Shown here: positions 29,703 through 62,146 of the stretch, one piece after another
How positions within the stretch are numbered: position 1 is the stretch's first letter
Layout of the letters: the number at the start of each line of letters is the position of its first letter
From: Gammaproteobacteria bacterium AqS3
Lineage (GTDB): Bacteria; Pseudomonadota; Gammaproteobacteria; MEIF01; AqS3
Reading direction: 5' to 3'
Assembly (NCBI GenBank): GCA_001750645.1
Contig: MEIF01000228.1
Span: 79,322-143,321, forward strand
DNA: 64,000 nt
Notes under the pieces: generated by a model
Told to the model about the DNA's origin: nothing
Databases searched by the model: none
What the model saw: the letters and a program-made list of their open reading frames with translations, nothing else
Program-made: the position numbers and the translations under genes

Positions 29703-31640
29703 TTATGCAATGTCTACCTCTTCCTCGGCAAACCAGTCATTTCTCAAGACGTAATCTTTCACCTTGTCGGGGTTTTCAGCATAAGCCACCAAAGCCAGGC
29801 TGCTTTTGCTGCGGCTGCAGGCAACATAGAAAAGCCGCCGGGTTCGATCAATTGAGCTGTCTCTGCCCTCGTCAAGGTTGCTTATGTCAGTCCGCGAATA
29901 CGCCCTGTCGCCGAGCAGCTTGCCGTAGCTGAACATGAAGCCGCGCGACTCGGAATCGTCCATGATCACCATGACACGCTCAAACTCCAAGCCCTTCACG
30001 CCTTGGTGGGTGTCAAACGCTGTCAGCCCGTCAATATATTTCTGATAGATGTCGATCTCGGAGAATGGAGCCTCCAAGAAGGAAAGCACGGCTGCTGTGC
30101 GTTCATCAAGCGGATCGGCTTGCATGTCTTCCTGGGAGGAGTCCGCAGAGCTGTCTAAGACCGCGTGGGCAGACAGCAAGACCTCTGGGATCTCGAACAA
30201 TTCGTGTTCAAGAATGCAGCGCAAAACGTCGGCGCATGTCGGTGTGCCTTTGCCGCAAAGCGACATCAGGGCATCAACGCCGGCCTGAGCCTGCATCATC
30301 AATTGCTTTGGGTCGGAAGCCTCTTTGAGAGCGTCTCGAGTCAACAGCGGAGACGACTGCCGGATCAGCCTGAAAACTGTGAATCGGTCGTTTTTCTGTT
30401 GGGCCTGAACAAGCGGAAAAGCCAATTGAGTGAAGAACCGAAGCAGGGGGAGGCTGCCATCGAGCAGTCCGGTGCGCCAGCCATCGATTTTGTAGAGAGG
30501 CTTGAAGACCGCTTCAAACTTCAGGCGCCTTGCAGCCATGTGATGCTCAAGCGTGAGAATCTTGCACTGATCTCGATTGCCCCAGCCGGCATCACCGGAA
30601 TATTCAGCCATTTGGCTTCGGATATCCTCTTCGATTGCCGTATGGTCTGTTACATCGGCGCGTCGGATAAACAGCCTCACCTTCCCATTAAGTGCATCCG
30701 ATCTGGCTTCCTGAGTGTGCTCATCCGCTGTCTCCCGAATCTTATTGATGAGTCGCACAACCCGCTTGGGGCAGCGATGATTGAGTCTTTTGGAGGGCCT
30801 TCCCCAACGCTCGGGAAGCTCCTCTTCGATATGCTCTTTGCCGTCCTGATAAATTCGCTGCATGACATCGCCGATCAGTCCCAGGCAAAACCGGTCTGAA
30901 TGCCTTTGATCAACCGTGAAGAGGGCGCCAATCAGATGGCGGTTGGTGTCCTGACTTTCGTCAATTAGCAGGATGGGAAATCGACCAACCAGTATCCAGC
31001 CCATGAGGGGTTTCTGAGATAGAAAATCTGCGCAGATTTGAATGACTTCTGCATGGTTGAGTGCATTGGATTCGGAGTTTTCACCGTTGGGGCTGTAGAT
31101 GAAAGACTGAATGGCATCAAGCCGCTCTAACTGCTTTCCTTTGGATTTGATTTTGGCTTGCCGTTCTATCGATGCCTTGGTTCTAGAGCGGCCTTTATCT
31201 TCCTTTATTTGGAGTTCATCTATTTCCTCTTGCAAATTTTTGCGGAGCCATTCTCTAATGTCGTGATCAAAACCCTTAATCAGCTCCCAGGCAAAGCTGT
31301 GAATGGTCGCTACGTAGAAGAGAGGATGGGAATCTGTCCGCCGAATGATTTCATCACGGGCGGCATTGGTATAGGTGATCACACCGACACGATGGCCGTG
31401 CAATGTCAGTTCGCGTTCATATTTTGAGCGAATATGATCCAGTGAATTGACCAAGGTCCGCGTCTTTCCTGAGCCGGCACCTGCAAAAAGAAAGAAGCTT
31501 CTCGGCTCTTTGGGATTGAGATAGCCGGCGATTTCCTCATCTACGGGGTCGTCTAAGGTGCTGTTTACAGTCAGGGACGGACTAATGGTCATGGCCTTTT
31601 TGAGGCTTTGTATCTTCAGCTGGCTTTGGATTAACGACAC
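29703..31640 (-). CDS. gajB: UvrD-like SF1 helicase, GajB-like (Gabija-like pair 2); start may be the internal Met near 31592
   Basis: Walker A FLFAGAGSGKTRTL, motif II LLIDESQD, C-terminal VACSRSKSSL. Paralogous to the 15129..17006 product. Confidence 0.7.
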   Translation of the reverse strand: MSLIQSQLKIQSLKKAMTISPSLTVNSTLDDPVDEEIAGYLNPKEPRSFFLFAGAGSGKTRTLVNSLDHIRSKYERELTLHGHRVGVITYTNAARDEIIRRTDSHPLFYVATIHSFAWELIKGFDHDIREWLRKNLQEEIDELQIKEDKGRSRTKASIERQAKIKSKGKQLERLDAIQSFIYSPNGENSESNALNHAEVIQICADFLSQKPLMGWILVGRFPILLIDESQDTNRHLIGALFTVDQRHSDRFCLGLIGDVMQRIYQDGKEHIEEELPERWGRPSKRLNHRCPKRVVRLINKIRETADEHTQEARSDALNGKVRLFIRRADVTDHTAIEEDIRSQMAEYSGDAGWGNRDQCKILTLEHHMAARRLKFEAVFKPLYKIDGWRTGLLDGSLPLLRFFTQLAFPLVQAQQKNDRFTVFRLIRQSSPLLTRDALKEASDPKQLMMQAQAGVDALMSLCGKGTPTCADVLRCILEHELFEIPEVLLSAHAVLDSSADSSQEDMQADPLDERTAAVLSFLEAPFSEIDIYQKYIDGLTAFDTHQGVKGLEFERVMVIMDDSESRGFMFSYGKLLGDRAYSRTDISNLDEGRDSSIDRTRRLFYVACSRSKSSLALVAYAENPDKVKDYVLRNDWFAEEEVDIA

Positions 31641-33900
31641 CCAAACTCTCTTGCTGGTTATTTAGTTGCTTAATCAGCCACCGTAGCCCTTCACGAATAT
31701 AAGAAGGCGGCTGTAATTTTATGGGTTCTGAGATATATAGAAGATCAAGTGCGAATTCTGCTTTTCCTCCAGCTTCCAATGCTTGAAATATTTGGTTGCG
31801 CAATGCTTCTAGATCAGAGCTTGTATCAATTGCTGTCTTAAATTTCTCCCCTAGGCTGTTACTTGGAAGATGATTTTGAAAGAGTTTTAGGTTCTCCATT
31901 ATCAATGCGTCTTCAAAAGTGTTGCACAAGGCCTCTTCGCGCTTTCCTTTAAATTCCACGCTGACTGGCCGTTGGTATGCGACGCGAATGGAAAAATGCT
32001 GGCTTTCATATTTTTTACTCTTTAACTTTTCATCAAGATCCAAGAGGACATCCAGTTCTTCAACACCGGGACACCACGACTTGAGGGTGTAGTTGCGTGT
32101 TTTAAGGCTGCTATCGCGCCTTGGTATTTCTTTTGCTCGGTCTGTGTTAGAAGCATCAAGATCGGTGATGATGAGAGTTGTCAGGCCCAGGTGTTCAACC
32201 AAATCTTTGAACCTATGAGCATGACTTCCGCCAATCTCAAGCCATGAGATGTAGCACTGCTGCAAAGCATTGAGTTCTGGCTGGTGTTCGACAAAGAACG
32301 GAATCAAGATTCTTTCAGCCGGGCCTTCCACAAATACCGCCGCATCGGCAAAAAGCAGGTCACAGTGAGTCACCTTGATATATCGAGTGACAAAGCGCTT
32401 GGTCTCATCTTCTGCCCCGAATATATTACTCAGATTGATGACGCATGAGAGGGGAACAGATGCTGCATCGATGGGAAGACGGCGAAAATATCGCAGGTCA
32501 TCAAATTCACATTCATGGGCGATATGGCTGGAGTGCGTGCTCACGATCACCTGGGTTTTCAATTCCTCTGATTGCCCTAATTCACTGTGGCTTCGAAGAA
32601 ATTTATAGGCCTGTCTGATAAATACCTGTTGAACCTGTGTGTGAAGGTGGGCTTCAGGTTCTTCAATGAGCACAAGATGCAAAGGCGGAATATGCACATC
32701 AGATTCTTCCTCTGATTGAATATTGGCTTTGCCAACGCGCATCCGCGCATCGCGAAAGCTCATTAACCGGAAAATCATGGATATAAGGTTTTGATAACCC
32801 AGACCGTTGGAGTCTTCAGGGAGGCTAAGTTCAACTGTGTTCCCGTCATCTTGTGTGGTTACAGCATATTGGACGGCAGTGGGATGATTAAGACCATCAA
32901 CCGGCTTGATGCGTGTGGAAATTTTGAGCTTTGGATCGGTGATGCCCGGATACCCCATTTTTTCCACTTCTTGGATGGCTGCTGAGAATCCATTCATAAG
33001 TTTCTCATCAAAAGTCTCTTGAGCCGTTTTGATGGCAGCCAACGCTCTGATGTCTTGTTCGCTTGAATGTTTAAGCGGGTCGAGGTGCCTATTCCAATAG
33101 CGCTGAAGTTGATGGGACATGCGCCGACTGGAGCTTGATCCGGCAAGTGTGCCGTCATCATCGGGATCGCCGGACTCAGTGGTTTGGCCAAAACCCCGCT
33201 GGGCGCCGATCTCATCAATTTGGATGAGACCTTTGAGGGGGTTGCTGCCGATGGGCTCTGCGTTATCTGGCAGCGGTTGAGGCTGTGACTCGCCACGATC
33301 AGCCTTGCTGAATTTTGCGGGATCAAGAATGTACGCCTCAATGGAGAAGAGGTCGCTCAATCTGCGCTTTAGAAAATCGGTAAGTGAAAGGGGCCAAAGC
33401 AAATCTGATAGATCACCTTCAGTTCGTTTCTTGGTCGTTTCCAAAGAATGCGATTGGGCACGAGCGACTACATAGGCCTTTTGGAGTTTGGATTCGTCTT
33501 TCGGTTGAAGCCGAAAGCGAACGCCAAGCCGTCCGCCATCCCAATCAAGCGTCGGGATTATCTTTTGGACTAAATGAGCCTCTTCCTTGTCGGCGTGAAG
33601 CCAGACATCCAGAAAGGGCAGGATGGGGGCCCAATCGGGCTCAGGAAGAGGCTGATCTTCTGTATTCGCCCTCTCCCAGGCAGCCCCCATTTCGTCAATT
33701 TTCGGCCAATTGGACAGCGTGAAGTCATCGAGAGAAAAAGGATTTCTGCCTTTTTCGATAAGAAAGTACTGAAGGGCGCGCATTGCCGAAGTCTTTCCGC
33801 TGTTATTCGCCCCGACAAAAACTGTGGTCTCCCCAGAAAATTCGATCCGCACTGATTTGAGCTTTCTAAAATTTGCAATCTCAATACATTCAATGTGCAT
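31582..33900 (-). CDS. gajA: OLD-family ATPase + TOPRIM nuclease, GajA-like (Gabija-like pair 2)
   Basis: Start chosen at ATG 33900 (AGGGAA RBS; aligns with the N-terminus of pair 1). GANNSGKTS Walker A, LVLIEEPEAHLHTQVQQVFIR, STHSSHIAHE, TOPRIM VFVEGPAERILIP ... LIITDLD. Confidence 0.75.
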   Translation of the reverse strand: MHIECIEIANFRKLKSVRIEFSGETTVFVGANNSGKTSAMRALQYFLIEKGRNPFSLDDFTLSNWPKIDEMGAAWERANTEDQPLPEPDWAPILPFLDVWLHADKEEAHLVQKIIPTLDWDGGRLGVRFRLQPKDESKLQKAYVVARAQSHSLETTKKRTEGDLSDLLWPLSLTDFLKRRLSDLFSIEAYILDPAKFSKADRGESQPQPLPDNAEPIGSNPLKGLIQIDEIGAQRGFGQTTESGDPDDDGTLAGSSSSRRMSHQLQRYWNRHLDPLKHSSEQDIRALAAIKTAQETFDEKLMNGFSAAIQEVEKMGYPGITDPKLKISTRIKPVDGLNHPTAVQYAVTTQDDGNTVELSLPEDSNGLGYQNLISMIFRLMSFRDARMRVGKANIQSEEESDVHIPPLHLVLIEEPEAHLHTQVQQVFIRQAYKFLRSHSELGQSEELKTQVIVSTHSSHIAHECEFDDLRYFRRLPIDAASVPLSCVINLSNIFGAEDETKRFVTRYIKVTHCDLLFADAAVFVEGPAERILIPFFVEHQPELNALQQCYISWLEIGGSHAHRFKDLVEHLGLTTLIITDLDASNTDRAKEIPRRDSSLKTRNYTLKSWCPGVEELDVLLDLDEKLKSKKYESQHFSIRVAYQRPVSVEFKGKREEALCNTFEDALIMENLKLFQNHLPSNSLGEKFKTAIDTSSDLEALRNQIFQALEAGGKAEFALDLLYISEPIKLQPPSYIREGLRWLIKQLNNQQESLGVVNPKPAEDTKPQKGHDH

Positions 33901-34045
33901 TGTGAAATCATTCCCTGATGACAGTTTCTGTTGAACTGCCGGCACCTGGTTGATAGGGGGGTTGACAGGAAGACGCAAAAACGAGCGAAGCCATGGCTGT
34001 CAGGATGTGAATACGCAGCATTTCATTAGCCCTCCTCAATCCAGC

Positions 34046-34122
34046 TGGCGCGCCCGGCAGGATTCGAACCTGCGACCAACGGCTTCGGAAGCCGCTACTC
34101 TATCCAGCTGAGCTACGGGCGC
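34046..34122 (-). tRNA. tRNA-Arg (anticodon CCG)
   Basis: Reverse complement folds as a canonical cloverleaf: acceptor GCGCCCG/CGGGCGC, D-arm GCTCAGCTGGATAGAGT, anticodon loop TTCCGAA, T-arm GCAGGTTCGAATCCTGC, 3' GCCA. Confidence 0.85.
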
Positions 34123-48312: not shown

Positions 48313-49704
48313 GTGCAGGACGCTCGACCCACACAGCAGCCGCTCAGCGTCAGTGCATTGAACCAGGGAGTCCGTCGGTTGCTGGAGCAGAACTACGGAT
48401 TTGTCAATGTCGCCGGTGAGATCTCCAACCTGCGCAGCTATCCCTCCGGACACTGGTACTTCACGCTCAAGGACGAGCGCGCCGAGGTCTCGTGCGTGAT
48501 GTTTCGCGGCCAGAATCAGCGCATTGCGCGCAGGCCGGAGAACGGTGACAGCATCCGCCTCGAGGGTCGATTGAGCCTCTACGAGGCCCGCGGAACCTAC
48601 CAGATCATCGTCTCCTCGATGCACGCCATGGGCGAGGGTGCGCTGATGCTGGCCTACGAGCGGCTCAAGCGCCGGCTGCATCAGGAGGGGCTGTTTGACG
48701 AGGGCCGCAAAGTTCCCATACCGACCGCACCCGGTCGGGTCGCGCTGGTCACTTCGCTGCGGGGCGCTGCGCTGCAGGACATGCTGACCCTGCTCAGGAG
48801 ACGCTCCCCGCAGACCGAGGTCATCGTTGTCGGCAGCGCCGTTCAGGGTGATGCGGCTCCGGGCGAGCTGGTTGAGGCGCTGGAGCGGATTCAGCGAACC
48901 GATCTGGAATTCGACTGCATCGTCATCGGTCGGGGCGGCGGATCGATCGAAGATCTGTGGGCCTTCAACGATGAGCGCCTCGCGCGCACCATTGCCGACT
49001 GCACCATTCCGACGGTCAGCGCCGTCGGGCATGAGACCGATTTCACCATCGCCGACTTCGTCGCTGACGCCCGTGCCCCGACCCCCTCGGCCGCGATCGA
49101 GATGATCACCGCCGACTCGGTGCTCTACCCCCAGCTGTTAAATTACATCGGCGCCCGTCTGCCGCAGCTGATGCAGCAGCATCTGGTGCGGGCGAGGCGC
49201 TCGCTGGAGCGTCAGCGTCTGCGCCCCCCGACGCGGCTGCTGCAGCACCACGCCCAGCGGCTGGACGATGTCGAGCGGCGCATGCACGCCGCCATCGGAA
49301 AACAGCTGCACCGCCAGCGCAGCCGGCTGCAGTGGATGCACGGGCGCATGCGCCACCCCGGCATGGCGCTGCGACTGGTGCGGCAGCGGCTTGACATCCT
49401 GAGGCACCGGCTGCGGAACAACTCGCTGGCGGGGCATCTTCAGCGCCGGCGCCGGGAGCTCGAGGAAGCGCCCGCCCGCATGGCGGCTGGAGCCGGTCGG
49501 CGGCTGCGCACATTCAGGGCGGGTCTGGATGCCGCCTCGGCCCGCCTTGAGGCCGTCAGCCCCCAGGCGGTGCTGAAACGCGGCTATGCCCTGGTGTGGC
49601 GGGACGGAGAACTGATCCGCATGCAGGCCGATGTCAAACCGGACGACATCCTGCAGATCCAATGGGCTGACGGTGAGCGCCCGGTGCGCGCAGAGGATTC
49701 ATGA
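48313..49704 (+). CDS. xseA: Exodeoxyribonuclease VII large subunit
   Basis: OB-fold N-terminus (VAGEISNLRSYPSGHWYFTLKD), catalytic core (RGGGSIEDLWAFN), long C-terminal coiled coil. Confidence 0.9.
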   Translation: MQDARPTQQPLSVSALNQGVRRLLEQNYGFVNVAGEISNLRSYPSGHWYFTLKDERAEVSCVMFRGQNQRIARRPENGDSIRLEGRLSLYEARGTYQIIVSSMHAMGEGALMLAYERLKRRLHQEGLFDEGRKVPIPTAPGRVALVTSLRGAALQDMLTLLRRRSPQTEVIVVGSAVQGDAAPGELVEALERIQRTDLEFDCIVIGRGGGSIEDLWAFNDERLARTIADCTIPTVSAVGHETDFTIADFVADARAPTPSAAIEMITADSVLYPQLLNYIGARLPQLMQQHLVRARRSLERQRLRPPTRLLQHHAQRLDDVERRMHAAIGKQLHRQRSRLQWMHGRMRHPGMALRLVRQRLDILRHRLRNNSLAGHLQRRRRELEEAPARMAAGAGRRLRTFRAGLDAASARLEAVSPQAVLKRGYALVWRDGELIRMQADVKPDDILQIQWADGERPVRAEDS

Positions 49705-50552
49705 GCTCGACTGTGCGGTGCCAGGCTGCTCTGTTGGTGCTGCTGATCTGCACCGCAGCGGCGGCGCCTGCCGCCAGAGCGGAGCCGGCCAGCCTGCCGA
49801 GTGAGGCGCGCATTCCCGGCGGCATCGCCCTGATCGAACTGCCCAGCAGGCGCATCGCCCGCCGGGCGACCTTTCAGGATCGCCCGGTGCTCGCCGTCGG
49901 CCGCACCGCCGTGGTCGCGATCCCGCTGAACACCGCCCCTGGCGACTACGCCCTCAAAAGCGGCAAGCGCGAGTATCGGTTCAGCGTGTCCGAGCATGTC
50001 TACCCCGAATCGCGCATTACCTTGCAGGGTGAAAAGCGCGAAATGGTCGACGTCCCCGAGGAGCGCCTGGTGCGCATTCGCTCCGATCATCGCGCCATTC
50101 GCGGGGCTTATGCCACCCGGGACGAGAATGTTCCGCTGCTGCGCCTGAACCTGCCGGCCGAGGGGCCCTGGTCATCGCGCTACGGCCTCAAGCGCTTCTT
50201 CAACGGCAAGCAGCGCAGCCCGCACACCGGCCTGGACATCGCCGCCCCCACCGGGACCCCCGTCTACGCCGCCGCCGCCGGCGAGGTTGTCGCCAGCGAT
50301 GACTACTACTTCAACGGCCACACCGTCATCGTCCACCACGGCGGCGGACTGGTCACGCTGTACTGCCACCTCAGCGAGCGGCTGGTTGAGGCCGGTGCGA
50401 CAGTTGAGGCCGGCCAGCTGATCGGCAGAGTCGGCTCCAGCGGCCGGGCCTCAGGTGCGCATCTGCACTGGAGCGTCAGCCTCAGCAACGTCCGCGTCGA
50501 CCCCGAGCTGTTTGTGGATCCCGAGGTTCGAGCGGCACAGTCTGCGGATTAG
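49701..50552 (+). CDS. M23-family peptidase (LytM/NlpD-like), secreted
   Basis: Signal peptide. M23 motifs HTGLDIAAPTGTPVYAAAAG and HLHW. Confidence 0.75.
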   Translation: MSSTVRCQAALLVLLICTAAAAPAARAEPASLPSEARIPGGIALIELPSRRIARRATFQDRPVLAVGRTAVVAIPLNTAPGDYALKSGKREYRFSVSEHVYPESRITLQGEKREMVDVPEERLVRIRSDHRAIRGAYATRDENVPLLRLNLPAEGPWSSRYGLKRFFNGKQRSPHTGLDIAAPTGTPVYAAAAGEVVASDDYYFNGHTVIVHHGGGLVTLYCHLSERLVEAGATVEAGQLIGRVGSSGRASGAHLHWSVSLSNVRVDPELFVDPEVRAAQSAD

Positions 50553-50690
50553 CGAATGGCGGTATGCGGCTGAAGTTTGATGGGTGCGGACTTGAAATGT
50601 TGAAAGGGCATACCATATAAGGCCCAGATGAGTTGGTCGGGGCCTGGGCTTGTTCAGGTTCCGCAGTTTTGAATCATGGAGGACGCTGTT

Positions 50691-51257
50691 ATGTCTGATG
50701 ACGGTACCAAGGGCAAATTTACTGCCCGCATTAAATGTGATGATCGCGAATGCCGCGTGGCGTGCGACACACAAAACCCCGCTGTTCGAGAAATTTTGGA
50801 TAAAGCCGCAGAGAGTGACCTTCTGCGGCCGTCGGACAATATCGACGACTTTGAGCTGGTGGACGAGCAGAATGGCAGACAGATTGACGGCGATGAAGTT
50901 GACATAGCTGAAAATCCCAATTTGGTTCTTCGGCCCAAAAAGCCTGAGCTGCCGGATTCAGAAAAACCGGAAGAGACAGACAAATCGAAGCCGCCCGCCC
51001 CTCCCGTCCCGCCCTTCCAAGGGCCTTACAAATTTCAAGTCAACGGCCAGGAAATGGAAAGCGATCAGGAAAAATTGAAGGCATCGGAGATTATCCGGCT
51101 GGCTCAGGACAGGGGCTTTGCCAGTTCGGGCAAGCCGGAAGAATTCGTCCTGCAGGTGTCGGGCGAGGATAAGGAATTCAAATACGATGAAACTGTCGAT
51201 TTAAGCCGGGATAATGCTTTTCTGATCATTCCGAGAAAGCCCACCCCTGTTGCATAG
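50691..51257 (+). CDS. Tandem beta-grasp (ubiquitin-like) protein: two ~75-aa Ubl-like modules joined by a K/P/E-rich linker; no C-terminal Gly-Gly
   Basis: GGAGG RBS 8 nt before ATG 50691. Secondary-structure-like periodicity of two beta-grasp modules (KFTARIKCDD...LVLRP and YKFQVNGQEM...FLIIPRK). First gene of a coupled E2 / JAB-E1 cassette. Fold assignment is an inference. Confidence 0.4.
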   Translation: MSDDGTKGKFTARIKCDDRECRVACDTQNPAVREILDKAAESDLLRPSDNIDDFELVDEQNGRQIDGDEVDIAENPNLVLRPKKPELPDSEKPEETDKSKPPAPPVPPFQGPYKFQVNGQEMESDQEKLKASEIIRLAQDRGFASSGKPEEFVLQVSGEDKEFKYDETVDLSRDNAFLIIPRKPTPVA

Positions 51258-51649
51258 TGATGGACGAGTGCCTGGAGCGAATCTTTGAGGAACTGAAGGG
51301 TCTGGGCTATGACCCTTATTACGCGGACTGGCCGCAGGGGAAAAAGGTGGTCATCAAATACAGGATTCTCACGGGCAAATACGCCAATCAAACGGTCTTG
51401 CTGGGGGTCTCAAACCCGGATGGCCCCTATCCTGAATACCCTCCGCATTGGATTCACATTAGCCCGCTGCACGACGATGGATTGGGAGGGCCAGTAGAAA
51501 TCTATTCAAGTGAAAATGAAAAGGGGCAGACCTGTGAATGGGGCGCATTGAGCCGCCCTCCTCGCGATATTTGGGATCAGCTGCCGGAAAAAAGCATGAA
51601 GTCATTTCTTAATGAACATGTTGGCCGCTTTTGCAAAGCCCTGAAGTGA
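51257..51649 (+). CDS. Prokaryotic E2 (UBC-like) conjugating enzyme candidate
   Basis: 130 aa. HPN-like segment YPPHWIHISP followed by a conserved Cys (GQTCEWG). Start overlaps the upstream stop. Overlaps the downstream E1 gene by 19 nt. Confidence 0.5.
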   Translation: MMDECLERIFEELKGLGYDPYYADWPQGKKVVIKYRILTGKYANQTVLLGVSNPDGPYPEYPPHWIHISPLHDDGLGGPVEIYSSENEKGQTCEWGALSRPPRDIWDQLPEKSMKSFLNEHVGRFCKALK

Positions 51650-53124
51650 ATATATACGAGGCAGTCTTTTTGGGCGAGACCAATGAAGAAATATGCGCTC
51701 ACTTATTGCAGCACTTCAACAAGGGGGAGTATCAGGAGGATCTTTGCTTTGCCCTTTGGCGCCCCAGCACGGGTCAAAATCGCTACAGCGCTTTGATTTA
51801 CAAAGCCATTCTCCCCCATGAGGGTGAAAGAAACCTCCATGGAAATGTGGAGTTCAATCCAAATTATTTGTCCCGCGCCATTAACCTGGCCTGCCGGGAG
51901 GGTGCAGGACTTGCCTTTATGCACAGCCATCCGTCCGATGGCTGGCAGGCCATGAGCCAGCCGGATGTCGTCGCTGAAAAGGAGGCGATTTTTTATCCGG
52001 CACAGGCCACACAATTGCCGTTGCTGGGGTTAACGGTGGGAACCGACGGTTATTGGAGCGCTCGATTTTGGATCAGGGAGGGCAGGAAAAATCAGATTCA
52101 TTGGTGTCAAAAGGTCCGGGTGGTCGGCGAGAAAAAATATCAGCTCTACCATAACGATGCCCTTGCACCCGCTCCGAAGAGAAGAAATATCCTGCGGAGA
52201 ACTTATGACACCTGGGGGGCAGAAAAGCAGAACGATATTGCGCGTCTCAAGATCGGCGTGGTGGGCTTGGGCAGTGTCGGCTGCATTGTTGCCGAGGCGC
52301 TCGCCCGAGGCGGCATTCAGGAAATTGTTCTGATCGATCCGGATCGGGTGGAGGAGCACAATCTGGATCGGCTGCTGTATGGAACGCAGAGCGAGATCGG
52401 CCAATATAAAGTGGACGTGGCTGAGAGGCGCCTCCGGCTCAATTCCACCGCAGAGAGGGTTGCCGTTCAAAAAATCCCGCTCTCCCTCCGCGATGAGCGG
52501 GCTTATCTGGCGGCGCTGGACTGCGATCTCCTGCTGAGCTGTGTCGACCGTCCGGTTGCCAGGGATGTGCTTAATTTCATTGCCTTTGCGCATTTGATAC
52601 CGGTGATTGACGGGGGCATTGCCATTGAGCATGCGGAAAATCTGGATTCATTCTTTGCCCATTGGAGGGCGCACCTTGTCACCCCATACCACCAGTGCAT
52701 GCGCTGCAATGGCCAGTACACGACCAGTGACGTGTCTGTGGAATTGGATGGATCGCTGGACAACCCTGCCTATGTCAGCAGTCTGCCGCCCGAGGAGCGG
52801 GGCCGCAACCAGAATGTTTTTCCGTTCAGCCTGCATGTTGCAGCCATGGAAGCCGGCGCCATGTTTCGGTACTTGGTGGCGCCTGATTGGTGGCCTCCGG
52901 TTCAGCAGCAGGACTATGATTTTTTAAGGGGTACGACAACCATTCAGAACGACAAGTGCAGGCCACATTGCGTATTTCAAAATGAGCGAATTGCCCGGGG
53001 CGATGCAATCAACCCCAATCTCAAAAGCCTGATTATTCGGACAGGTGAACCAGACAGAGACGAACGGAAAAGCTGGCTCCGCGGTTTATTGTCTAAATTC
53101 ACCAGAGCTTTCGGTAAGGAATAG
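51631..53124 (+). CDS. JAB/MPN metalloprotease domain fused to E1-like (ThiF/MoeB) adenylyltransferase (TTG start)
   Basis: N-terminal JAMM motif E...HSHPS...S..D (FMHSHPSDGWQAMSQPD). C-terminal Rossmann KIGVVGLGSVGCIVAEALARGGIQEIVLIDPDRVEEHNLDR. Cys pairs CMRCNG ... CRPHC. Confidence 0.75.
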   Translation: MQSPEVNIYEAVFLGETNEEICAHLLQHFNKGEYQEDLCFALWRPSTGQNRYSALIYKAILPHEGERNLHGNVEFNPNYLSRAINLACREGAGLAFMHSHPSDGWQAMSQPDVVAEKEAIFYPAQATQLPLLGLTVGTDGYWSARFWIREGRKNQIHWCQKVRVVGEKKYQLYHNDALAPAPKRRNILRRTYDTWGAEKQNDIARLKIGVVGLGSVGCIVAEALARGGIQEIVLIDPDRVEEHNLDRLLYGTQSEIGQYKVDVAERRLRLNSTAERVAVQKIPLSLRDERAYLAALDCDLLLSCVDRPVARDVLNFIAFAHLIPVIDGGIAIEHAENLDSFFAHWRAHLVTPYHQCMRCNGQYTTSDVSVELDGSLDNPAYVSSLPPEERGRNQNVFPFSLHVAAMEAGAMFRYLVAPDWWPPVQQQDYDFLRGTTTIQNDKCRPHCVFQNERIARGDAINPNLKSLIIRTGEPDRDERKSWLRGLLSKFTRAFGKE

Positions 53125-54034
53125 AGGAGGCCACAAATCTTGGCCCTCTCAAACCTTTTTGCTTGCCCAGCTGCTCAAACAGTGTCCGCACTCTTTCCAG
53201 GTCCGGCACTCGGGGCCCGATCGTAATGATGCTTCCGCTTTGCAAAAGATTTTTGGTCTTTAGGGCATCTGTGTCAACATATTTCCTTATGTGAGATGTA
53301 GCCGGTTTATAGTCAAAGGAGTGTTCTTTCTCCCCTATATCTTGATATGGAATTAAAATTCGACTTTCTCTTTCATGCTTATAGGCGCTATCCTTGTATA
53401 AAAATCGCAAAACAACAAAATACTCCAAAATTTCTTCGATAAAGGCGTTTTTATTCTCCTCACTCAACTTATCTTTCCAATAACCCTTATATCTTTGCAG
53501 GATTCCCCCAAACTCTTCCGCGCATTTCTCGAGGGCTCTTTTTTCATAGGCTACTTTGTATATTTTTTCCGGCCTGATAATTTTAGGTAAAGCTATAGAG
53601 CAGCCCAGCCCATCCTGCCCGTATGATTGCCAATACATCAGCTCATCTTCAACACCCTTTTTTCCCCCTATGAAGGAGCATGAAAACGGGGGGTTTTTTC
53701 TGGGAGTGATTATTTCTTCGGGCAATTCATATTTTTTTTGAATTTCGTTGAGGAAATATTTTCCTTCATTGGGATCATTCGTGGCTGAAATATCGTAACA
53801 CCTTAATCCCCTGCTCTCATGGTGCGGGGGTTCATCTGTCTCGCAGGGAAGATTATTGAGCATTGAATAAACTGTTTCCATATTGGTGTAATGAACAAAA
53901 TATTCCAGACTTTCGTCAGTGTCGGTCACGAGATAATTATCAGCAAGATAATGATCTATTGACCCTCGAATCTCTGCCATCAAGGCCTTCCAATCCAGAG
54001 TGCCGGGTTCCAGCTTATTTGCCATCGTGATCAC
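53099..54034 (-). CDS. Hypothetical protein, DUF2971-like (tentative), convergent with the Ubl cassette
   Basis: Motifs FVHYTNMETVYSMLNN ... LRCYDISATNDPNEG fit my recollection of DUF2971 (HYT ... NDP.E). Same low-GC island. Confidence 0.35.
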   Translation of the reverse strand: MITMANKLEPGTLDWKALMAEIRGSIDHYLADNYLVTDTDESLEYFVHYTNMETVYSMLNNLPCETDEPPHHESRGLRCYDISATNDPNEGKYFLNEIQKKYELPEEIITPRKNPPFSCSFIGGKKGVEDELMYWQSYGQDGLGCSIALPKIIRPEKIYKVAYEKRALEKCAEEFGGILQRYKGYWKDKLSEENKNAFIEEILEYFVVLRFLYKDSAYKHERESRILIPYQDIGEKEHSFDYKPATSHIRKYVDTDALKTKNLLQSGSIITIGPRVPDLERVRTLFEQLGKQKGLRGPRFVASSIPYRKLW

Positions 54035-54092
54035 CCCAATAAAGCAAAATCAACGGCGGATTATACCGGGCATATTCGCCGCTTTGGCTGAC

Positions 54093-55259
54093 CTACCGCC
54101 CTGCCCTCAGACTCCATTTCTCGGCGCCCCATTGCAGCAGGATCAGCGCTGTGAGGACATTGCTGAAGAAGAAAAATCTCAGCGACAGATCGTGAAGCAA
54201 TACGATGTGGGCGGCGGCGAACAGCACGGCGGCCATCAGAAAACCGTTCTCGCTTTTCCAGAAATTTCCTTGGCGAAAATTCTGGATCAATTTATAGCCA
54301 ACCACTCCAAGCAAAACCAGGCGAAACAGGGTTCTGCGCCAAGCCGCAAGGATGTATTCAATGGTCCTCGCGTAGGGCGGCCAGTAATCGGAGAGCTGGG
54401 CTGAGATCGGAATGTCTCCGCCGCCGGCAAAAACACGCAGCAGCTCAGGTGTGTTATGCACGATGAATATGAAATTGAACAGGGCCAAATATCCGGGATG
54501 TTCGGAGAGGGTATTCGCCATCAAATAAGAGAGCAATGCCCCGGCATAAGCCAGATACTCCCACTTGGGCGATGCCTTTTGACTGTTTCTGACTTTGACC
54601 CAGTCGTCGCACAGCTGCCAGAGCATTAGCAGGGTGATGAAAATAATAAAATTGGTGCGAATCAATGGCAGCAGCACAATCAGAGCCAGCGCCCAATTCC
54701 GCCTTTTATTCCAGCACAGCACAATTCCCAAGGCGGCCACTGCGGCCAGCAAATCCGGGGTGGCAAGGGCGGCCACTTTGGGGAGCTGGAACACCAGCAG
54801 CGCAACCGGAAAAAGCGCGAATATGCGCCAGTTGCTGCCCAGCAGCGCCCCGCCAAACAGCAGGGCAAAAACGGCTCCGGCCAGTGCGCCAGTCAAGGCG
54901 ATGGCTGAACTGATGGTGTCGGTGAATAGCGACAGCGCCCGCACCGTCGCCAGATACAGATATCGGCCCTGATAAAACGCAACTTGGCGCTCGAAAAATT
55001 GCGGATCTTGGTGCGTCAATGTTCGGTACAAAATATCTTCTGTCAGCTCTCGCCACTTTTCATCATCAACGCTGGCCCGCACATCTGCATAAGTGGCCTC
55101 GTGCAGCTGAGCTCCGCGCGCACCCTCGAGATGCAAAATGGATGCGGTGTAGCCGATCATGTCCCAATTTTGGCGAGGATTCACCAAGCCGTTGGCCAGA
55201 ACCAGGGCGGAGAAAATCAGGATCGTCAGAGCCTGCCAGGGGTGTTGTTTGAGAATCAA
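54093..55259 (-). CDS. Polytopic inner-membrane protein, last gene of the arabinose-like operon; candidate GT-C-type arabinofuranosyltransferase (inference from position)
   Basis: ~10 predicted TM helices. 4-nt overlap with the dprE2-like gene. Occupies the aftA position of the mycobacterial Rv3789-Rv3792 cluster. Confidence 0.4.
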   Translation of the reverse strand: MILKQHPWQALTILIFSALVLANGLVNPRQNWDMIGYTASILHLEGARGAQLHEATYADVRASVDDEKWRELTEDILYRTLTHQDPQFFERQVAFYQGRYLYLATVRALSLFTDTISSAIALTGALAGAVFALLFGGALLGSNWRIFALFPVALLVFQLPKVAALATPDLLAAVAALGIVLCWNKRRNWALALIVLLPLIRTNFIIFITLLMLWQLCDDWVKVRNSQKASPKWEYLAYAGALLSYLMANTLSEHPGYLALFNFIFIVHNTPELLRVFAGGGDIPISAQLSDYWPPYARTIEYILAAWRRTLFRLVLLGVVGYKLIQNFRQGNFWKSENGFLMAAVLFAAAHIVLLHDLSLRFFFFSNVLTALILLQWGAEKWSLRAGR

Positions 55260-59364: not shown

Positions 59365-62146
59365 TTGATGAATCTGTCGTGGAATGAGATTCGCCATCGG
59401 GCAGGAAAATTTTCCGATGACTGGAGAGATGCGCATTATGAAAAAGGCGAGACTCAGAGTTTTTATAACGATTTCTTTCAGATTTTTGGACTGCAGAGAA
59501 GAAGTGTCGCCCGCTATGAGCAGCATGTCCAAAAATTAGGCGACCAGGCCGGCTTTATTGATCTGTTTTGGCCTGGCACACTGCTGGTTGAGCAAAAGAG
59601 CGCCGGTCGCAATCTTGAAAAAGCCAGGGAACAGGCGGGAGAATATTTTGACGGATTGCCCGACCACCAGCGCCCCCGCTACATTCTTTTGAGCGATTTC
59701 CAGACTTTTGAATTGCATGATTTGGAGGAGAAATCTGGAAATATCTGTTTTGAGCTTGCAAATCTGCACGAACATGTCGAGAAATTCAGCTTTATGATCG
59801 GGATTCAGCGCAGGGTTTTTCGCGATCAGGATCCGGTCAATATTTATGCAGCCGAGCAGGTCGGCAGACTCTATGACGCCCTCAAGCATGCGGGCCATGC
59901 CGAATATGACCTGGAGCGATTTTTGGTGCGCATTGTGTTCTGTCTTTTCGCCGACAACACCGGCATTTTTGAGTCCAGGCACAGCCTGCTTGACTTTATC
60001 GAAACGAGGACCCGGGAGGACGGCTCTGATCTGGGACAGCAATTGGCGCAATTATTCGAGGTCCTGGACACGCCCCCAGACAAGAGGGCCGGCACTCTGG
60101 ATGAAGATTTGGCTAAATTTCCCTATGTTAACGGAGAGCTTTTTAGGGATCATTTGAGAATATTTTCCTTTGATTCAAGAATGCGCAAAATGCTGCTGGA
60201 GGTCTGCCATTTCAATTGGTCCAACATATCGCCGGCCATATTCGGGGCACTGTTCCAATCGGTGATGGATCCGGAGATGCGCCGCACGCAGGGAACTCAT
60301 TACACGACCGAGCAGAATATTCTGAAGGTGATCGAGCCGCTGTTCATGGATGATTTGCGGGCGGAGTTTCAAAGGCTGAAGTCTCTTCGCAGGGGGCGCA
60401 TTCGGGCTCTCAGGCATTTTCAGAAAAAATTGGGGACCATGAAATTTCTGGACCCCGCATGCGGCTGCGGCAACTTTCTCATCATCGCCTATCGGGAATT
60501 GCGCCAGCTGGAAATTGAGGTGCTCAGAGAGATCTATCCCAAAGCCCAGGGTGTCCGGCAGTCGGCGTTATCCGTGCAGATTTTGTCGCTGATCGACGTC
60601 GACCAGTTCTACGGAATTGAAATCGGGAAATTCCCTGTTCGCGTTGCCGAAACGGCGCTGTGGATGATGGACCACATCATGAACAACAAGCTCAGCATTG
60701 AATTTAGCAAGAACTATGCGCGCATCCCGCTTGAGAAATCACCCTCTATTTTTCAGGGCGATGCGCTGGAAAATGATTGGGCTGATGTGCTCCCTCCCAA
60801 AGAGTGCTCCTTTGTATTGGGCAACCCCCCTTTTGCCGGATCAAAGCTTCAATCCGCCGAGCAGCGGATTCAGGTGCGTCAGATTGCAAGGGGGGGGAAC
60901 GCTCGATTACGTCTCGGCCTGGTTTGTTAAGGCTGGCGAGTACATAAAACGCTGCAATGCTCGAATGGGCTTTGTTGCGACCAATTCGATCACTCAGGGC
61001 GAGCAGGTGGCGCAATTGTGGCCAATCCTTTTCGATAGATGCAAACTGGAAATTAGCTTTGCGCATCGCACTTTTGCCTGGGGCTCGGACGCGCGCGGCA
61101 AGGCAAATGTGCATGTCGTGATTTTGGGCTTGGACAACTGTGAGAAAGCGCCAAAGGAAAAACGCCTGTTTAACTATCCCGATATTCGCGGCCAACCGGA
61201 AGAGAGCAGCCCCAAGGCGATATCGCCTTATTTATTTGATGCCGGTGATTTGTCTGATCCGCACACCGTGATCACAGAGGAAAGCCAGTCGATCAATGGA
61301 ATGAGCAAATTGGTTATGGGCTCCAAGCCCATCGATGGTGGGCACTATATTTTCAGCGAGACAAAACGTGACAACTTTCTCAAACTGGAACCGGGAGCAG
61401 AAACATTTCTCCGCCCCTATATCGGCGCTCGGGAATTTTTGCAGGGAGAGAAACGATGGATTTTGTCCCTGCATAACGCCTCTCCGGAACAATTGGCGCA
61501 CCTGCCGAATGTGAAAAAAAGAATCGCTCGGGTTCGCGCTTATCGAGAAGCGAGCAGAAGTTCACCAACGCGGAATTTGGCGGAAACGCCGAGGCTTTAT
61601 CACCTCAATGTGATTCCTGAAAAACCTTTTCTATTTATCCCAAGAGTAAGTTCACAGCGTCGCGAATACCTTCCCATTGGCTGGCTGGAGCCTCCTATCA
61701 TTCCCAGTGATGCGGCGCTTATTTTGGAAAATGCCACGCTGACTGACTTTGCCCTGCTGATCTCTGCAATGCATAACGCATGGCTGCGTCAGATAGGCGG
61801 TCGTCTGAAAAGCGACTATCGCTACTCGGCGGGTTCTGTTTACAACACCTTTCCGATGCCGCCTGCGACGGCAAAACTTGAAAAACTGGAGCCCCTGGCT
61901 CAGGCGGTGCTGGATGCCCGAGCCGCTCATTCAGGCTCAACGCCGGCCAATCTATATGATCCTGACCTGATGCCCGGTGACCTGCACCAAGCCCATAAGA
62001 ATCTGGACCGGGCCGTTGACCGCCTCTACCGCCGCGGCGGGTTTGCATCGGAGCACGAGCGCATCGGTCATTTGTTTGAGCGCTATGAAAAAGTGCGCAG
62101 TCCGCTGGAGGCGGGGAAGCGCAAAACAAGGCGTCGCCGTCGTTGA
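59365..62146 (+). pseudogene. MmeI-family type IIL restriction-modification enzyme (nuclease + gamma-class N6A methyltransferase + TRD in one ~925-aa polypeptide), interrupted by a frameshift at a G8 tract
   Basis: N-terminal D-X9-E-X-K nuclease motif (IDLFWPGTLLVEQK). Motif I DPACGCGNFL. Motif IV LGNPPFAGS. Downstream frame continues TLDYVSAWFVKAG ... C-terminal LFERYEKV. Reading frame 1 switches to frame 2 across gggggggg at 60910-60917. Confidence 0.75.
60910..60917 (+). repeat. Homopolymeric G8 tract inside the MmeI-like gene; 7 or 10 G would restore the frame
   Basis: Sequence ttgcaa-gggggggg-aacgc. Frame analysis done by hand. Confidence 0.85.

Follow-up and report, generated by a model that had tools for sequence, protein, structure and literature searches.

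The window analysed here is a stretch of 64,000 nucleotides from Gammaproteobacteria bacterium AqS3. This bacterium belongs to the three dominant symbionts that the sponge Amphimedon queenslandica inherits vertically. Between 50.6 and 54.0 kb it contains a cassette of four closely packed genes. The first three encode a ubiquitin-like protein (Ubl) that is likely to be a tandem, a protein resembling the ubiquitin-conjugating enzymes (E2), and a protein in which a JAB/JAMM metalloprotease domain is fused to a domain resembling the ubiquitin-activating enzymes (E1). The fourth gene is convergent with these and encodes a protein of the DUF2971 family. The subject of this work is the cassette, its relationship to the bacterial Bub operons, and its possible function.

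All four open reading frames (ORFs) identified in an earlier sequence-only reading of this DNA are present. The start of ORF1 is likely to be the ATG that has GGAGGA 6 nt to its 5′ side, as read from the junction, which supports the 188 residues given for it previously. The alternative ATG of ORF2 comes directly after the TAG of ORF1. The 19-nt overlap that had been described between ORF2 and ORF3 does not stand: ORF3 is likely to start at GTG 51646, because the resulting sequence MNIYEAVF matches the N-termini of homologues, and the overlap with the stop codon of ORF2 is then only 4 nt (GTGA). The 497 residues reported for ORF3 are therefore those of the whole ORF, while the protein itself is likely to have 492. 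Residue numbers for ORF3 are given here in the 497-residue frame. ORF2, ORF3 and ORF4 are 100% identical to annotated proteins in the public record for AqS3.

The cassette lies, as had been claimed, in an island of low GC. The GC content falls from about 0.69 upstream to 0.50–0.56 across ORF1–3 and then to 0.39–0.43 across ORF4, and that of the cassette as a whole is 0.50, compared to 0.60 in the remainder of the window. The upstream neighbour at 49701–50552 is, as described, an M23 peptidase gene (PF01551, 4.5e-31). The downstream neighbour is a minus-strand gene for a membrane protein, at 54093–55259. A scan of the cassette for promoters and terminators gave matches only at the level found in shuffled sequence, and a search for direct and inverted repeats in the flanks, which might mark the borders of the island, gave only short matches of the kind expected by chance. 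The sole tRNA gene of the window is 16 kb away from the cassette. The features of the cassette, and those of other loci discussed below, are listed in Table 1.

Table 1 Features of the cassette and of other low-GC loci, in window positions.
Feature	Position	Strand	Remarks
Upstream intergenic region	50553..50690	+	Shine-Dalgarno-like GGAGGA 50679-50684, 6 nt before ATG 50691
ORF1, Ubl gene	50691..51257	+	188 aa from ATG 50691; ORF opens ATG 50676 (193 aa)
N-terminal degenerate β-grasp-like module	50715..50942	+	hhalign vs Ubl family profile
C-terminal Multi_ubiq-type β-grasp module, conjugatable	51018..51254	+	PF14452
Mature C-terminus, Thr-Pro-Val-Ala codons	51243..51254	+	TAG directly after; pattern in 81 related Ubls
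ORF2, E2-like gene	51257..51649	+	130 aa from GTG 51257; 129 aa from ATG 51260 (public annotation)
E2 invariant Ser99-Arg100 codons (WSRP motif)	51551..51556	+	Proposed catalytic Ser; 57 family members
ORF3, JAB-E1 fusion gene	51646..53124	+	492 aa from GTG 51646; ORF opens TTG 51631 (497 aa)
JAMM active-site residues, N-terminal JAB domain	51736..51966	+	Invariant in 25 homologues
JAMM codons	Glu36 51736-51738; His98-Ser-His100 51922-51930; Ser109 51955-51957; Asp112 51964-51966	+	
E1 (ThiF/MoeB-type) adenylation domain	52183..53124	+	PF00899 6.5e-30
E1 landmarks	GLGSVG 52264-52281; Arg247 52369-52371; Asp306 52546-52548	+	
E1 cysteine codons	Cys356/Cys359 52696-52707; Cys443/Cys447 52957-52971	+	Probable Zn site
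E1 invariant Tyr codons, crossover region	Tyr363 52717-52719; Tyr381 52771-52773	+	Between the Cys pairs
Convergent 3′ overlap, JAB-E1/DUF2971	53099..53124	.	26 nt in window
ORF4, DUF2971-family gene	53099..54034	-	311 aa
ORF4 invariant codons, N-terminal part	Tyr49-Thr50 with nearly invariant His48 53885-53893; Asn86-Asp87..Glu90 53765-53779	-	
ORF4 invariant codons, remainder	Tyr138 53621-53623; Tyr163 53546-53548; Glu221-x-Glu223-x-Arg225 53360-53374	-	
First Gabija-like pair	UvrD-like helicase 15129-17006; OLD-family AAA_15 + TOPRIM ATPase 17003-19060	-	
Second Gabija-like pair	UvrD-like 29703-31640; AAA_15 + OLD TOPRIM 31582-33978	-	
MmeI-type ORF a	59365-60930	+	N, helicase-spacer, first part of methyltransferase domain
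MmeI-type ORF b	60698-62146	+	Rest of methyltransferase, target recognition domain, C domain

One genome for each GTDB species (185,579 species genomes) was scanned for relatives of ORF3. This gave 462 loci, of which the best 80 were examined and provide the counts that follow. The dominant gene order is Ubl, E2, JAB-E1 on one strand, followed by a convergent DUF2971 gene. The E2 is present in all 80 loci, the Ubl in 75 and DUF2971 in 62, being co-directional with the other genes in 9 of these. Because relatives recur in this way in the same order, the four ORFs of the window cannot be due to chance. In 73 of the 80 loci the GC content of the cassette is lower than that of its flanks, with a median difference of −7.5 points, or −12 for ORF4.

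All 80 loci come from metagenome-assembled genomes, at 48–64% identity, and they represent at least 12 named lineages. Their labels include Dehalococcoidia, Latescibacterota, Binatia, Bdellovibrionales, Thermodesulfobacteriota, Nitrospirales, Entotheonella/Tectimicrobiota, Caldilineaceae, Gemmatimonadota, Acidobacteriota-type, Acidimicrobiia, Spirochaetia, Paracoccaceae, Chromatiales, Candidatus Spongiihabitans and Spongiisociaceae. Several of the record names (Spongiihabitans, Spongiisociaceae, Entotheonella) are those of sponge symbionts, and Spongiihabitans occurs in papers on sponge metagenomes. To judge from the record names, the set of hosts looks like a high-microbial-abundance sponge community, and sponge holobionts may be where most copies of the cassette are found, bearing in mind that these are the best 80 of 462 loci and that the ranking favours relatives of a query taken from a sponge symbiont.

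The best match to ORF3 in the PDB is BubCD of Citrobacter, with an E-value of 1.5e-18 for the single sequence and 4.7e-26 for a profile of 25 homologues. BubCD is part of the Type I Bub operon (6E.1; BubAB, BubCD, BubE) of Citrobacter sp. (Ye, Gong, Chambers, Corbett, bioRxiv 10.1101/2024.11.21.623953; PDB 9ea4, 9eae, 9eav). The alignment spans only residues 24–333 of ORF3 and the identity is low. Within it, Glu36, His98, His100 and Asp112 align with the catalytic residues E28, H91, H93 and D104 of BubCD, and Arg247 aligns with the adenylation residue R227 (the numbering of the BubCD chain is that of the paper +2); all five are invariant in the family. When the N-terminal 175 residues were searched alone, BubCD was again the sole PDB match, with an E-value of 0.67 that is not significant by itself. 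The Pfam Prok-JAB model barely detects the domain, matching 2 of the 25 members, and these weakly, so that the identification of the JAB domain relies on the BubCD alignment and the invariant motif. In the remainder of the protein Pfam identifies just one ThiF domain, some 300 residues in length. The JAB-E1 fusion recognised in the sequence-only reading is thus well founded, on the ThiF match, the BubCD match and the invariant JAMM and Arg residues. That reading erred in regarding the fusion as a difference from Bub: the BubCD fusion defines Type I Bub, and crystal structures of it exist.

The ThiF and MoeB models of NCBIfam score between 60 and 70 bits against ORF3, with cut-offs of 159–450 bits. 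As all of these scores are far below the cut-offs, ORF3 does not belong to the MoeB or ThiF enzymes of housekeeping metabolism. The PADLOC models named ‘E1-E2’ match only the ThiF core, at residues of approximately 200–320.

The C-terminal part of ORF3, from around residue 330 to 497, contains an invariant Cys356-x-x-Cys359 and an invariant Cys443-x-x-x-Cys447 in the 25 homologues. These four cysteines probably form a structural Zn site like that of MoeB. Between the two pairs, at residues 360–442, Tyr363 and Tyr381 are invariant and there are no invariant cysteines. In Type I Bub the crossover loop is without Cys and has an invariant Tyr (Y370 of BubCD). The alignment with BubCD would not extend as far as Y370 with either the single sequence or the profile. 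Either Tyr363 or Tyr381 could be the counterpart of BubCD Tyr370.

ORF2 was not recognised in searches of Pfam, NCBIfam, PADLOC and PDB sequences, the last both with a single sequence and with a profile. Fold comparison gave BubB as the closest structure, and is the only method that links the two. The earlier description of ORF2 as UBC-like is therefore upheld, but not the ‘HPN-like segment and Cys’ that went with it. ORF2 is a UBC-fold E2 that lacks a catalytic cysteine: no Cys column is conserved across 57 E2 sequences, and Cys93 of the window protein, which is not conserved, lies within a 4-residue insertion common to the closest relatives only. The residues that are invariant in the 57 members are Tyr35, Gly40, Pro63-His64-Trp65, Asp74, Trp95, Ser99-Arg100 and Trp106, while His67 is nearly so. 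In the predicted model, Ser99 is at the end of a strand (residues 92–99), ahead of a short helix. A serine-type E2 without cysteine fits the published chemistry of Bub, which works by means of oxyesters on a Tyr of the E1 and a Ser of the E2, and in which the JAB cleaves a Ubl-E2 fusion (bioRxiv 10.1101/2024.11.21.623953).

The Pfam family Prok-E2_E (PF14462, cut-off 25 bits) does not match the window E2, and matches 14 of the 57 relatives weakly, the best with an E-value of 0.0011. A search of 1.84 billion representative proteins with the E2 profile retrieved only 106 clusters, about a dozen of which are Ubl-E2 fusions. The weakest matches to the profile (P0223, P0232 and P0240, with library-wide E-values of 1e-6 to 7e-5) do pass the Prok-E2_E cut-off, and one of the matches that pass it is a fusion of Multi_ubiq to Prok-E2_E. 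The serine of the W-S-R-P motif is invariant across both the E2s of the family and the Prok-E2_E relatives retrieved. Since the family is below the cut-off and yet its profile retrieves Prok-E2_E proteins, it is best regarded as a sister group of Prok-E2_E, rather than a member of it.

The Ubl encoded by ORF1 appears to have two β-grasp-like modules, with a Pro-rich linker between them. Its C-terminal 79 residues match the Multi_ubiq family (PF14452) with an E-value of 9.6e-5 and 22.9 bits, which is just below the cut-off of 24.5, and 21 of 50 Ubl relatives match the same model (E≤1, the best being 4.1e-7). A search of PDB sequences, with the single sequence and with a profile, gave nothing significant. 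The N-terminal module was aligned to the family profile by hhalign over 79 columns, with an E-value of 0.0017 but a probability of only 15%. ORF1 also aligns over its full length with tandem-module relatives (L001, L003, L004 and L016) in which the first module is clear. On this sequence evidence the protein is likely to be a tandem Ubl, as originally described, the C-terminal module being supported by the Multi_ubiq matches and the N-terminal module, less strongly, by the clear duplication in its closest relatives. Most of the relatives have only a single module, and are 76–110 residues long. The profile matches that the sequence-only reading had expected for the three proteins were thus obtained for ThiF, narrowly missed for Multi_ubiq, weak and in few members for Prok-JAB, and absent for Prok-E2_E with the window E2.

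That reading also noted the absence of a terminal Gly-Gly from the Ubl, and this is now seen to be a feature of the whole family, with a mature end of T-x-V-Ala. Out of 81 related Ubls, 65 stop exactly at T-x-V-(A/S/T), and 63 of these have Ala. A further 10 have a tail of 2–9 residues beyond that point, and in one (L010) the Ubl runs past TPVA into the E2 (...STPVA-TIPE-MSDN...). TPVA is found at the Ubl-E2 junction of the fused relatives from the protein library as well. From this C-terminal pattern we infer that the mature, activatable end is Ala, unlike the Gly of BubA, Bil and ubiquitin. We also considered whether ORF1 and ORF2 could be a frameshifted BubAB pseudogene. This was rejected, because split genes with a stop codon right after TPVA are the norm among related loci: of the 75 loci in which a Ubl was detected, 74 encode it apart from the E2 and one has the two fused.

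Some loci have additional copies of these genes. There are duplicated Ubl-E2 pairs in tandem in L002, L007 and L013, and two Ubl genes in L009, L011 and L025. A second E2 gene is found downstream on the minus strand, past a co-directional DUF2971 gene, in L042, L052, L055, L061, L071 and L075. The extra copies suggest paralogous sets of carrier and E2 that are served by one E1.

ORF4 of the window scores an E-value of 0.38 against DUF2971 (PF11185), which is under the Pfam reporting level. The same model matches 47 of 48 relatives of ORF4 (best 1.3e-7), and 41 of the 48 are matched by the PADLOC defence candidate PDC-S31. The precomputed Pfam annotation of a further relative, the JGI metagenome contig L081, likewise contains DUF2971, and it contains no DUF6527. 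The assignment of ORF4 as a DUF2971-like companion, proposed earlier, is thus borne out by its relatives and by its conservation among the loci. By prediction, DUF2971 belongs among the H-Y-E clade of ADP-ribosyltransferases, near DarT and AbiGi, and has a Tyr that is conserved together with an E-x-E motif (PMC12522546). Aristaios, a single-gene lactococcal DUF2971 protein, provides phage resistance of the abortive-infection type (PMC11381338).

In addition to the invariant codons in Table 1, the ORF4 family has invariant columns at Gly91, at Trp135..Tyr138-Gly..Gly-x-Gly-Cys-Ser146 and at Lys214..Tyr218. Its H-Y...Y...E-x-E pattern would fit the motifs predicted for the H-Y-E ADP-ribosyltransferases, with the residues assigned by pattern only. 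When the profile of the ORF4 family was compared with that of the DarT proteins from neighbouring loci, no similarity was seen (probability 0.6%), and the assignment as an ADP-ribosyltransferase is therefore based on Pfam and the literature.

The overlap between the 3′ ends of ORF3 and ORF4 is not peculiar to the window. Among related loci that have a convergent DUF2971 gene, 28 have an overlap of exactly 35 nt and another 16 one of 16–50 nt, making 44 in total. The tail of the E1 (...F-G/D-K) and the tail of the DUF2971 protein (...Y-R-K) are encoded by the same bases on opposite strands, in the related loci L001–L080 around locus position 9430–9470.

It has been stated that every Bub operon carries bubE, the gene of a DUF6527 serine protease (bioRxiv 10.1101/2024.11.21.623953). 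In the window the four genes take up 50691–54034 and leave no room for another. There is no Pfam match to DUF6527 on the ORFs of the cassette or on the two flanking genes. Nor, apart from a shadow ORF, is there any further gene family common to more than 11 of the 80 loci, and BubE/DUF6527 is therefore missing from the related loci also. In loci without DUF2971, the slot after the E1 is occupied by a TIR protein (L014, 9539–10459), an AAA_15 ATPase that overlaps the stop codon of the E1 (L076, L080), an HNH nuclease that is convergent and overlapping in the same way as DUF2971 (L074), a patatin (L066), a STAND NTPase (L059), or a set of methylase, PIN and ResIII genes (L044, L046, L050, L053, L057). 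TIR/SEFIR proteins accompany DUF2971 in L026 and L028, where they are upstream on the minus strand. TIR domains commonly cleave NAD. That they replace or accompany a DUF2971 protein which is itself predicted to use NAD hints that the outputs are of one type.

An M78 peptidase gene lies directly upstream of the cassette in about 10 of the 80 loci, adjoined in about 6 of these by an XRE-type helix-turn-helix gene. The two together resemble the CapH/CapP pair of regulators that accompanies 31% of the published Bub operons, which are frequently associated with either CapW/BrxR or CapH and CapP (bioRxiv 10.1101/2024.11.21.623953). Genes for Type I restriction-modification, for DarT and for serine recombinases often lie nearby. 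Restriction-modification, DarT, TIR and recombinase genes, together with the low GC in 73 of the 80 loci and with the Gabija-like pairs and MmeI-type gene that make up the other low-GC islets of the window, point to a mobile and defensive context and not a housekeeping one, as the sequence-only reading had anticipated.

We think it probable, on balance, that the genes form a mobile Ubl conjugation cassette of the Bub-like (6E) type coupled to a DUF2971 effector, which would most likely function as an anti-phage or stress-response module. In favour of this there are the fixed synteny, the conserved catalytic residues, the domain identities, the foreign composition and the defence-rich surroundings, all of which are observed. 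The mechanism that we propose is taken at every step by analogy from the biochemistry of Citrobacter Bub. The Ubl would be made already mature, ending in ...Thr-Pro-Val-Ala, while in relatives with tailed Ubls or Ubl-E2 fusions the JAB domain would trim after the Ala. The E1 domain would bind the last β-grasp module and adenylate the terminal Ala with ATP, using the GxGxxG motif, Arg247 and Asp306. The Ubl would then be relayed from Tyr381 or Tyr363 in the E1 crossover to Ser99 of the E2, in its WSRP motif and assisted by His64, His67 and Asp74, and from there to a lysine of the target. Because the E2 has no conserved Cys, the intermediates would be oxyesters. The JAB is probably also a deconjugase, because the JAMM motif is invariant even though about 80% of the Ubls need no processing, and because there is no BubE.

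The DUF2971 protein, as a predicted NAD-using ADP-ribosyltransferase of the DarT/AbiGi-like H-Y-E group, would provide a toxic or phage-directed output, and the conjugation machinery would act as its gate. The coupling could take several forms: the effector could be tagged and so held or released, it could act on targets that have been tagged, or transcription of the Ubl operon could hold its expression down. This last possibility is suggested by the separate promoter of the DUF2971 gene, its convergent orientation and the conserved overlap of the 3′ ends.

A number of points weigh against this interpretation. The clade is known here from its genes alone, and for Bub operons in general protection against phage is so far undemonstrated: the authors of the Bub work report none from any operon that they tested (bioRxiv 10.1101/2024.11.21.623953). 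A scan of viral contigs found no relative of the cassette. The window copy has no regulator of the CapH/CapP type, the gene upstream being that of the M23 peptidase. The C-terminal half of the E1 cannot be aligned with BubCD and has an invariant CxxC near the crossover, so that there may be a cysteine step on the E1. The serine of the E2 is within WSRP, whereas Type I Bub has an S-x-H arrangement with an upstream Asp (S333/H335/D299). Here it is Arg, not His, that follows the Ser, and the invariant His64 and Asp74 and the nearly invariant His67 lie upstream of it. There are also doubts over ORF4, which in the window has only the marginal PF11185 score noted above, is on the opposite strand and therefore not co-transcribed with the Ubl genes, and is missing from 18 of the 80 loci, so that it could be an independent neighbour.

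If it is a neighbour of this kind, ORF4 would be an unrelated single-gene defence system similar to Aristaios, which travels beside a three-gene Bub-like system and does not interact with it. It has its own strand and its own transcription unit, Aristaios does function as a single gene (PMC11381338), and defence genes cluster in islands, the flanks of the related loci being full of them. However, DUF2971 keeps the same position in 62 of the 80 loci, from Chloroflexota, Latescibacterota and Acidobacteriota to Proteobacteria, while every other flanking family is found in 11 loci or fewer. The overlap of 16–50 nt between the coding ends, which is a physical tie, has been kept in 44 loci, and in 9 the gene is co-directional, directly after the E1. 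A merely fortuitous association thus seems unlikely to us.

We regard as equally unlikely an addiction module of the toxin-antitoxin type, in which a DUF2971 toxin is neutralised by Ubl tagging or silenced by convergent transcription, the whole being a selfish mobile element. A small and self-contained cassette that occurs in many phyla, with a foreign composition in 73 of the 80 loci and conserved convergent 3′ ends that overlap, would be compatible with this, as would the relationship of DUF2971 to toxins of the DarT/AbiGi type (PMC12522546) and the fact that phage protection has been shown for no Bub operon. Against it, the 18 loci without the putative toxin keep an intact Ubl-E2-E1 set, which would not be expected of an antitoxin that has no toxin. 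The vacant slot then holds typical defence effectors, and CapH/CapP-like, damage-responsive regulators are found upstream. It is worth adding that toxin-antitoxin behaviour and abortive-infection defence are compatible with each other.

The distribution of hosts raises the question of whether the cassette is instead a symbiosis factor, the tagging being directed at host or symbiont proteins within the sponge, for example in evading phagocytosis or ubiquitin-dependent clearance, and not at phage. The organism of the window is passed on vertically in its sponge, and the best 80 loci are all from metagenome-assembled genomes, several of named sponge symbionts and the rest from lineages typical of sponge microbiomes. 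This may be a bias of the query and of the selection of 80 loci out of 462, and what recurs among the neighbours is not any gene related to secretion, but restriction-modification, DarT, TIR and recombinase genes, which makes such a role quite improbable. We can give hardly any credence to a biosynthetic E1-like system, either a sulfur carrier of the MoaD/ThiS type or a modification of peptide C-termini of the MccB/PaaA type, since although the E1 domain scores against ThiF, MoeB and MccB models and structures and its invariant Cys4 pattern would resemble the Zn site of MoeB-type enzymes, its NCBIfam scores are far under the cut-offs (for example 69 against 275 bits), a UBC-fold E2 and an active-looking JAB are present, Ala is the last residue of the carrier, the 80 loci share no rhodanese, sulfurtransferase or biosynthetic neighbour, and the distribution is patchy (462 loci in 185,579 species genomes) with a foreign composition.

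A conjugation cassette coupled to a DUF2971 effector therefore remains our preferred interpretation. It can be extended, much more tentatively and with doubts that outweigh our confidence, to a third Bub-like type, in which a Cys-free conjugation that activates Ala is wired to an NAD-dependent ADP-ribosyltransferase, and whose spread by horizontal gene transfer has been confined to sponge holobionts, where it is an immune module specific to that niche. If this were true, it would be a case of bacterial cross-talk between ubiquitin and ADP-ribose, with either the Ubl machinery gating the transferase, or the transferase modifying the Ubl, the E2 or the tagged targets. It would possibly also be the first Bub-type system with a phenotype that can be scored, in the form of a toxic output, and could reveal the purpose of Bub conjugation.

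The wider interest of the clade is that the Bub systems, described in 2024, are notable as a ubiquitin-like cascade without catalytic cysteine. The clade keeps the Bub core of JAB-E1, Ser-type E2 and Multi_ubiq Ubl, and swaps DUF6527 for a member of a family to which one proven single-gene abortive-infection protein belongs, which offers a probable toxic read-out for the pathway. The Ala end is a natural experiment on the C-terminal specificity of E1 enzymes, and the JAB must here act beyond the processing of a pre-protein. If the centring on sponges holds, the cassette would clearly exemplify how bacteria of one type of holobiont come to share a defence module through horizontal transfer.

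Several other loci in the window have a composition that differs from their surroundings. A low-GC islet (0.37–0.41) at 15129–19060 on the minus strand has a Gabija-like (GajB/GajA-type) pair that adjoins a ClpB-like gene. A second Gabija-like pair occupies 29703–34122 on the same strand, with a GC of 0.45–0.51, and abuts the gene for tRNA-Arg(ccg) at 34046–34122, which is likely to be the integration site. An MmeI-family type IIL restriction-modification enzyme is split over two overlapping ORFs at 59365–62146 on the plus strand, with a GC of about 0.52; the split is probably a frameshift or a sequencing error. Finally, a 356-residue protein with a phosphoribosyltransferase domain is encoded at 5069–6139 on the plus strand, in an isolated kilobase of low GC (0.47, with about 0.65 around it), and is possibly another acquired gene.

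How does the cassette compare with known systems? It differs from the MoaD/ThiS-MoeB/ThiF pairs in that its carrier ends in Ala and not Gly-Gly, and in having an E2 and a JAB. With Type II CBASS, where the proteins are Cap2 (E2-E1) and Cap3 (JAB), it would share the principle of a conjugation machinery that regulates an immune enzyme, and it shares effectors that can be swapped (TIR, patatin, HNH) and a ThiF core that matches the PADLOC ‘E1-E2’ models. The conjugated C-termini of CD-NTases in CBASS can end in either Gly or Ala. The cassette, on the other hand, has a dedicated Ubl, a separate E2 and a JAB fused to the E1, and there is no CD-NTase in it or among the conserved neighbours of related loci. 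With Aristaios, DUF2971 and PDC-S31 it has in common the matches of the ORF4 relatives to PF11185 and PDC-S31, but Aristaios is a single gene, while here the DUF2971 gene is fixed beside the Ubl, E2 and JAB-E1 set.

The Bil system (BilABCD; Hör et al. 2024, Chambers et al. 2024, as summarised in the Bub work) has a similar four-gene logic of Ubl, E2, JAB and E1, and acts against phage by conjugating its Ubl. Its JAB stands alone, its E1 is large and combines an inactive and an active adenylation domain with a Cys domain, its E2 is of the Cys type and its Ubl ends in Gly; the present cassette shows none of these features. The ‘6E’ neighbourhoods of Iyer, Burroughs and Aravind (multi-ubiquitin, Prok-E2_E, E1-JAB) were a computational prediction of the same set of domains, as cited in the Bub work. 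Both ‘6E’ and ‘DUF6527’ were earlier labels of the Bub operons (bioRxiv 10.1101/2024.11.21.623953). The window clade differs in that its proteins do not reach the thresholds set by Pfam for Multi_ubiq, Prok-E2_E and Prok-JAB, and in being without the DUF6527 marker, and for these reasons it is probably absent from existing catalogues. A search of the literature found no paper that describes it.

Type II Bub (6E.2; BubA, an E2-E1 fusion named BubBD, and BubE) resembles the cassette in a Cys-free E1/E2 chemistry, which for the cassette is predicted, and in its separate Ubl gene, but here the E2 is not fused to the E1, there is a JAB, and there is no DUF6527. The resemblance to Type I Bub is more extensive. 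Both have a JAB/JAMM domain fused N-terminally to a single-domain E1 with the same catalytic residues, a Multi_ubiq-type Ubl with 1–3 β-grasp modules, a UBC-fold E2 with an invariant Ser in place of Cys, and a JAB cleavage site at the end of the Ubl; rare Ubl-E2 fusions are found in the present clade, and the context is mobile and defensive, with CapH/CapP-like regulators in a subset. The differences are that Ubl and E2 are separate here in nearly all members (in the window, in different frames), and not fused as BubAB; that the mature end is Ala (TxVA), whereas Bub is cleaved after a conserved Gly; that DUF2971 takes the last position in place of DUF6527/BubE, and is usually convergent and overlapping; and that the C-terminal half of the E1, which cannot be aligned with BubCD, has CxxC...CxxxC.

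The cassette is homologous to Type I Bub and probably works like it, but lacks two of its defining features, the BubAB fusion with a Gly site and BubE. It is not a Bil system, a CBASS or a sulfur-carrier pair. Its actual novelties are the Ala terminus, the split genes, the loss of DUF6527, the fixed and overlapping DUF2971 gene, the E1 tail with its four cysteines, and the range of hosts.

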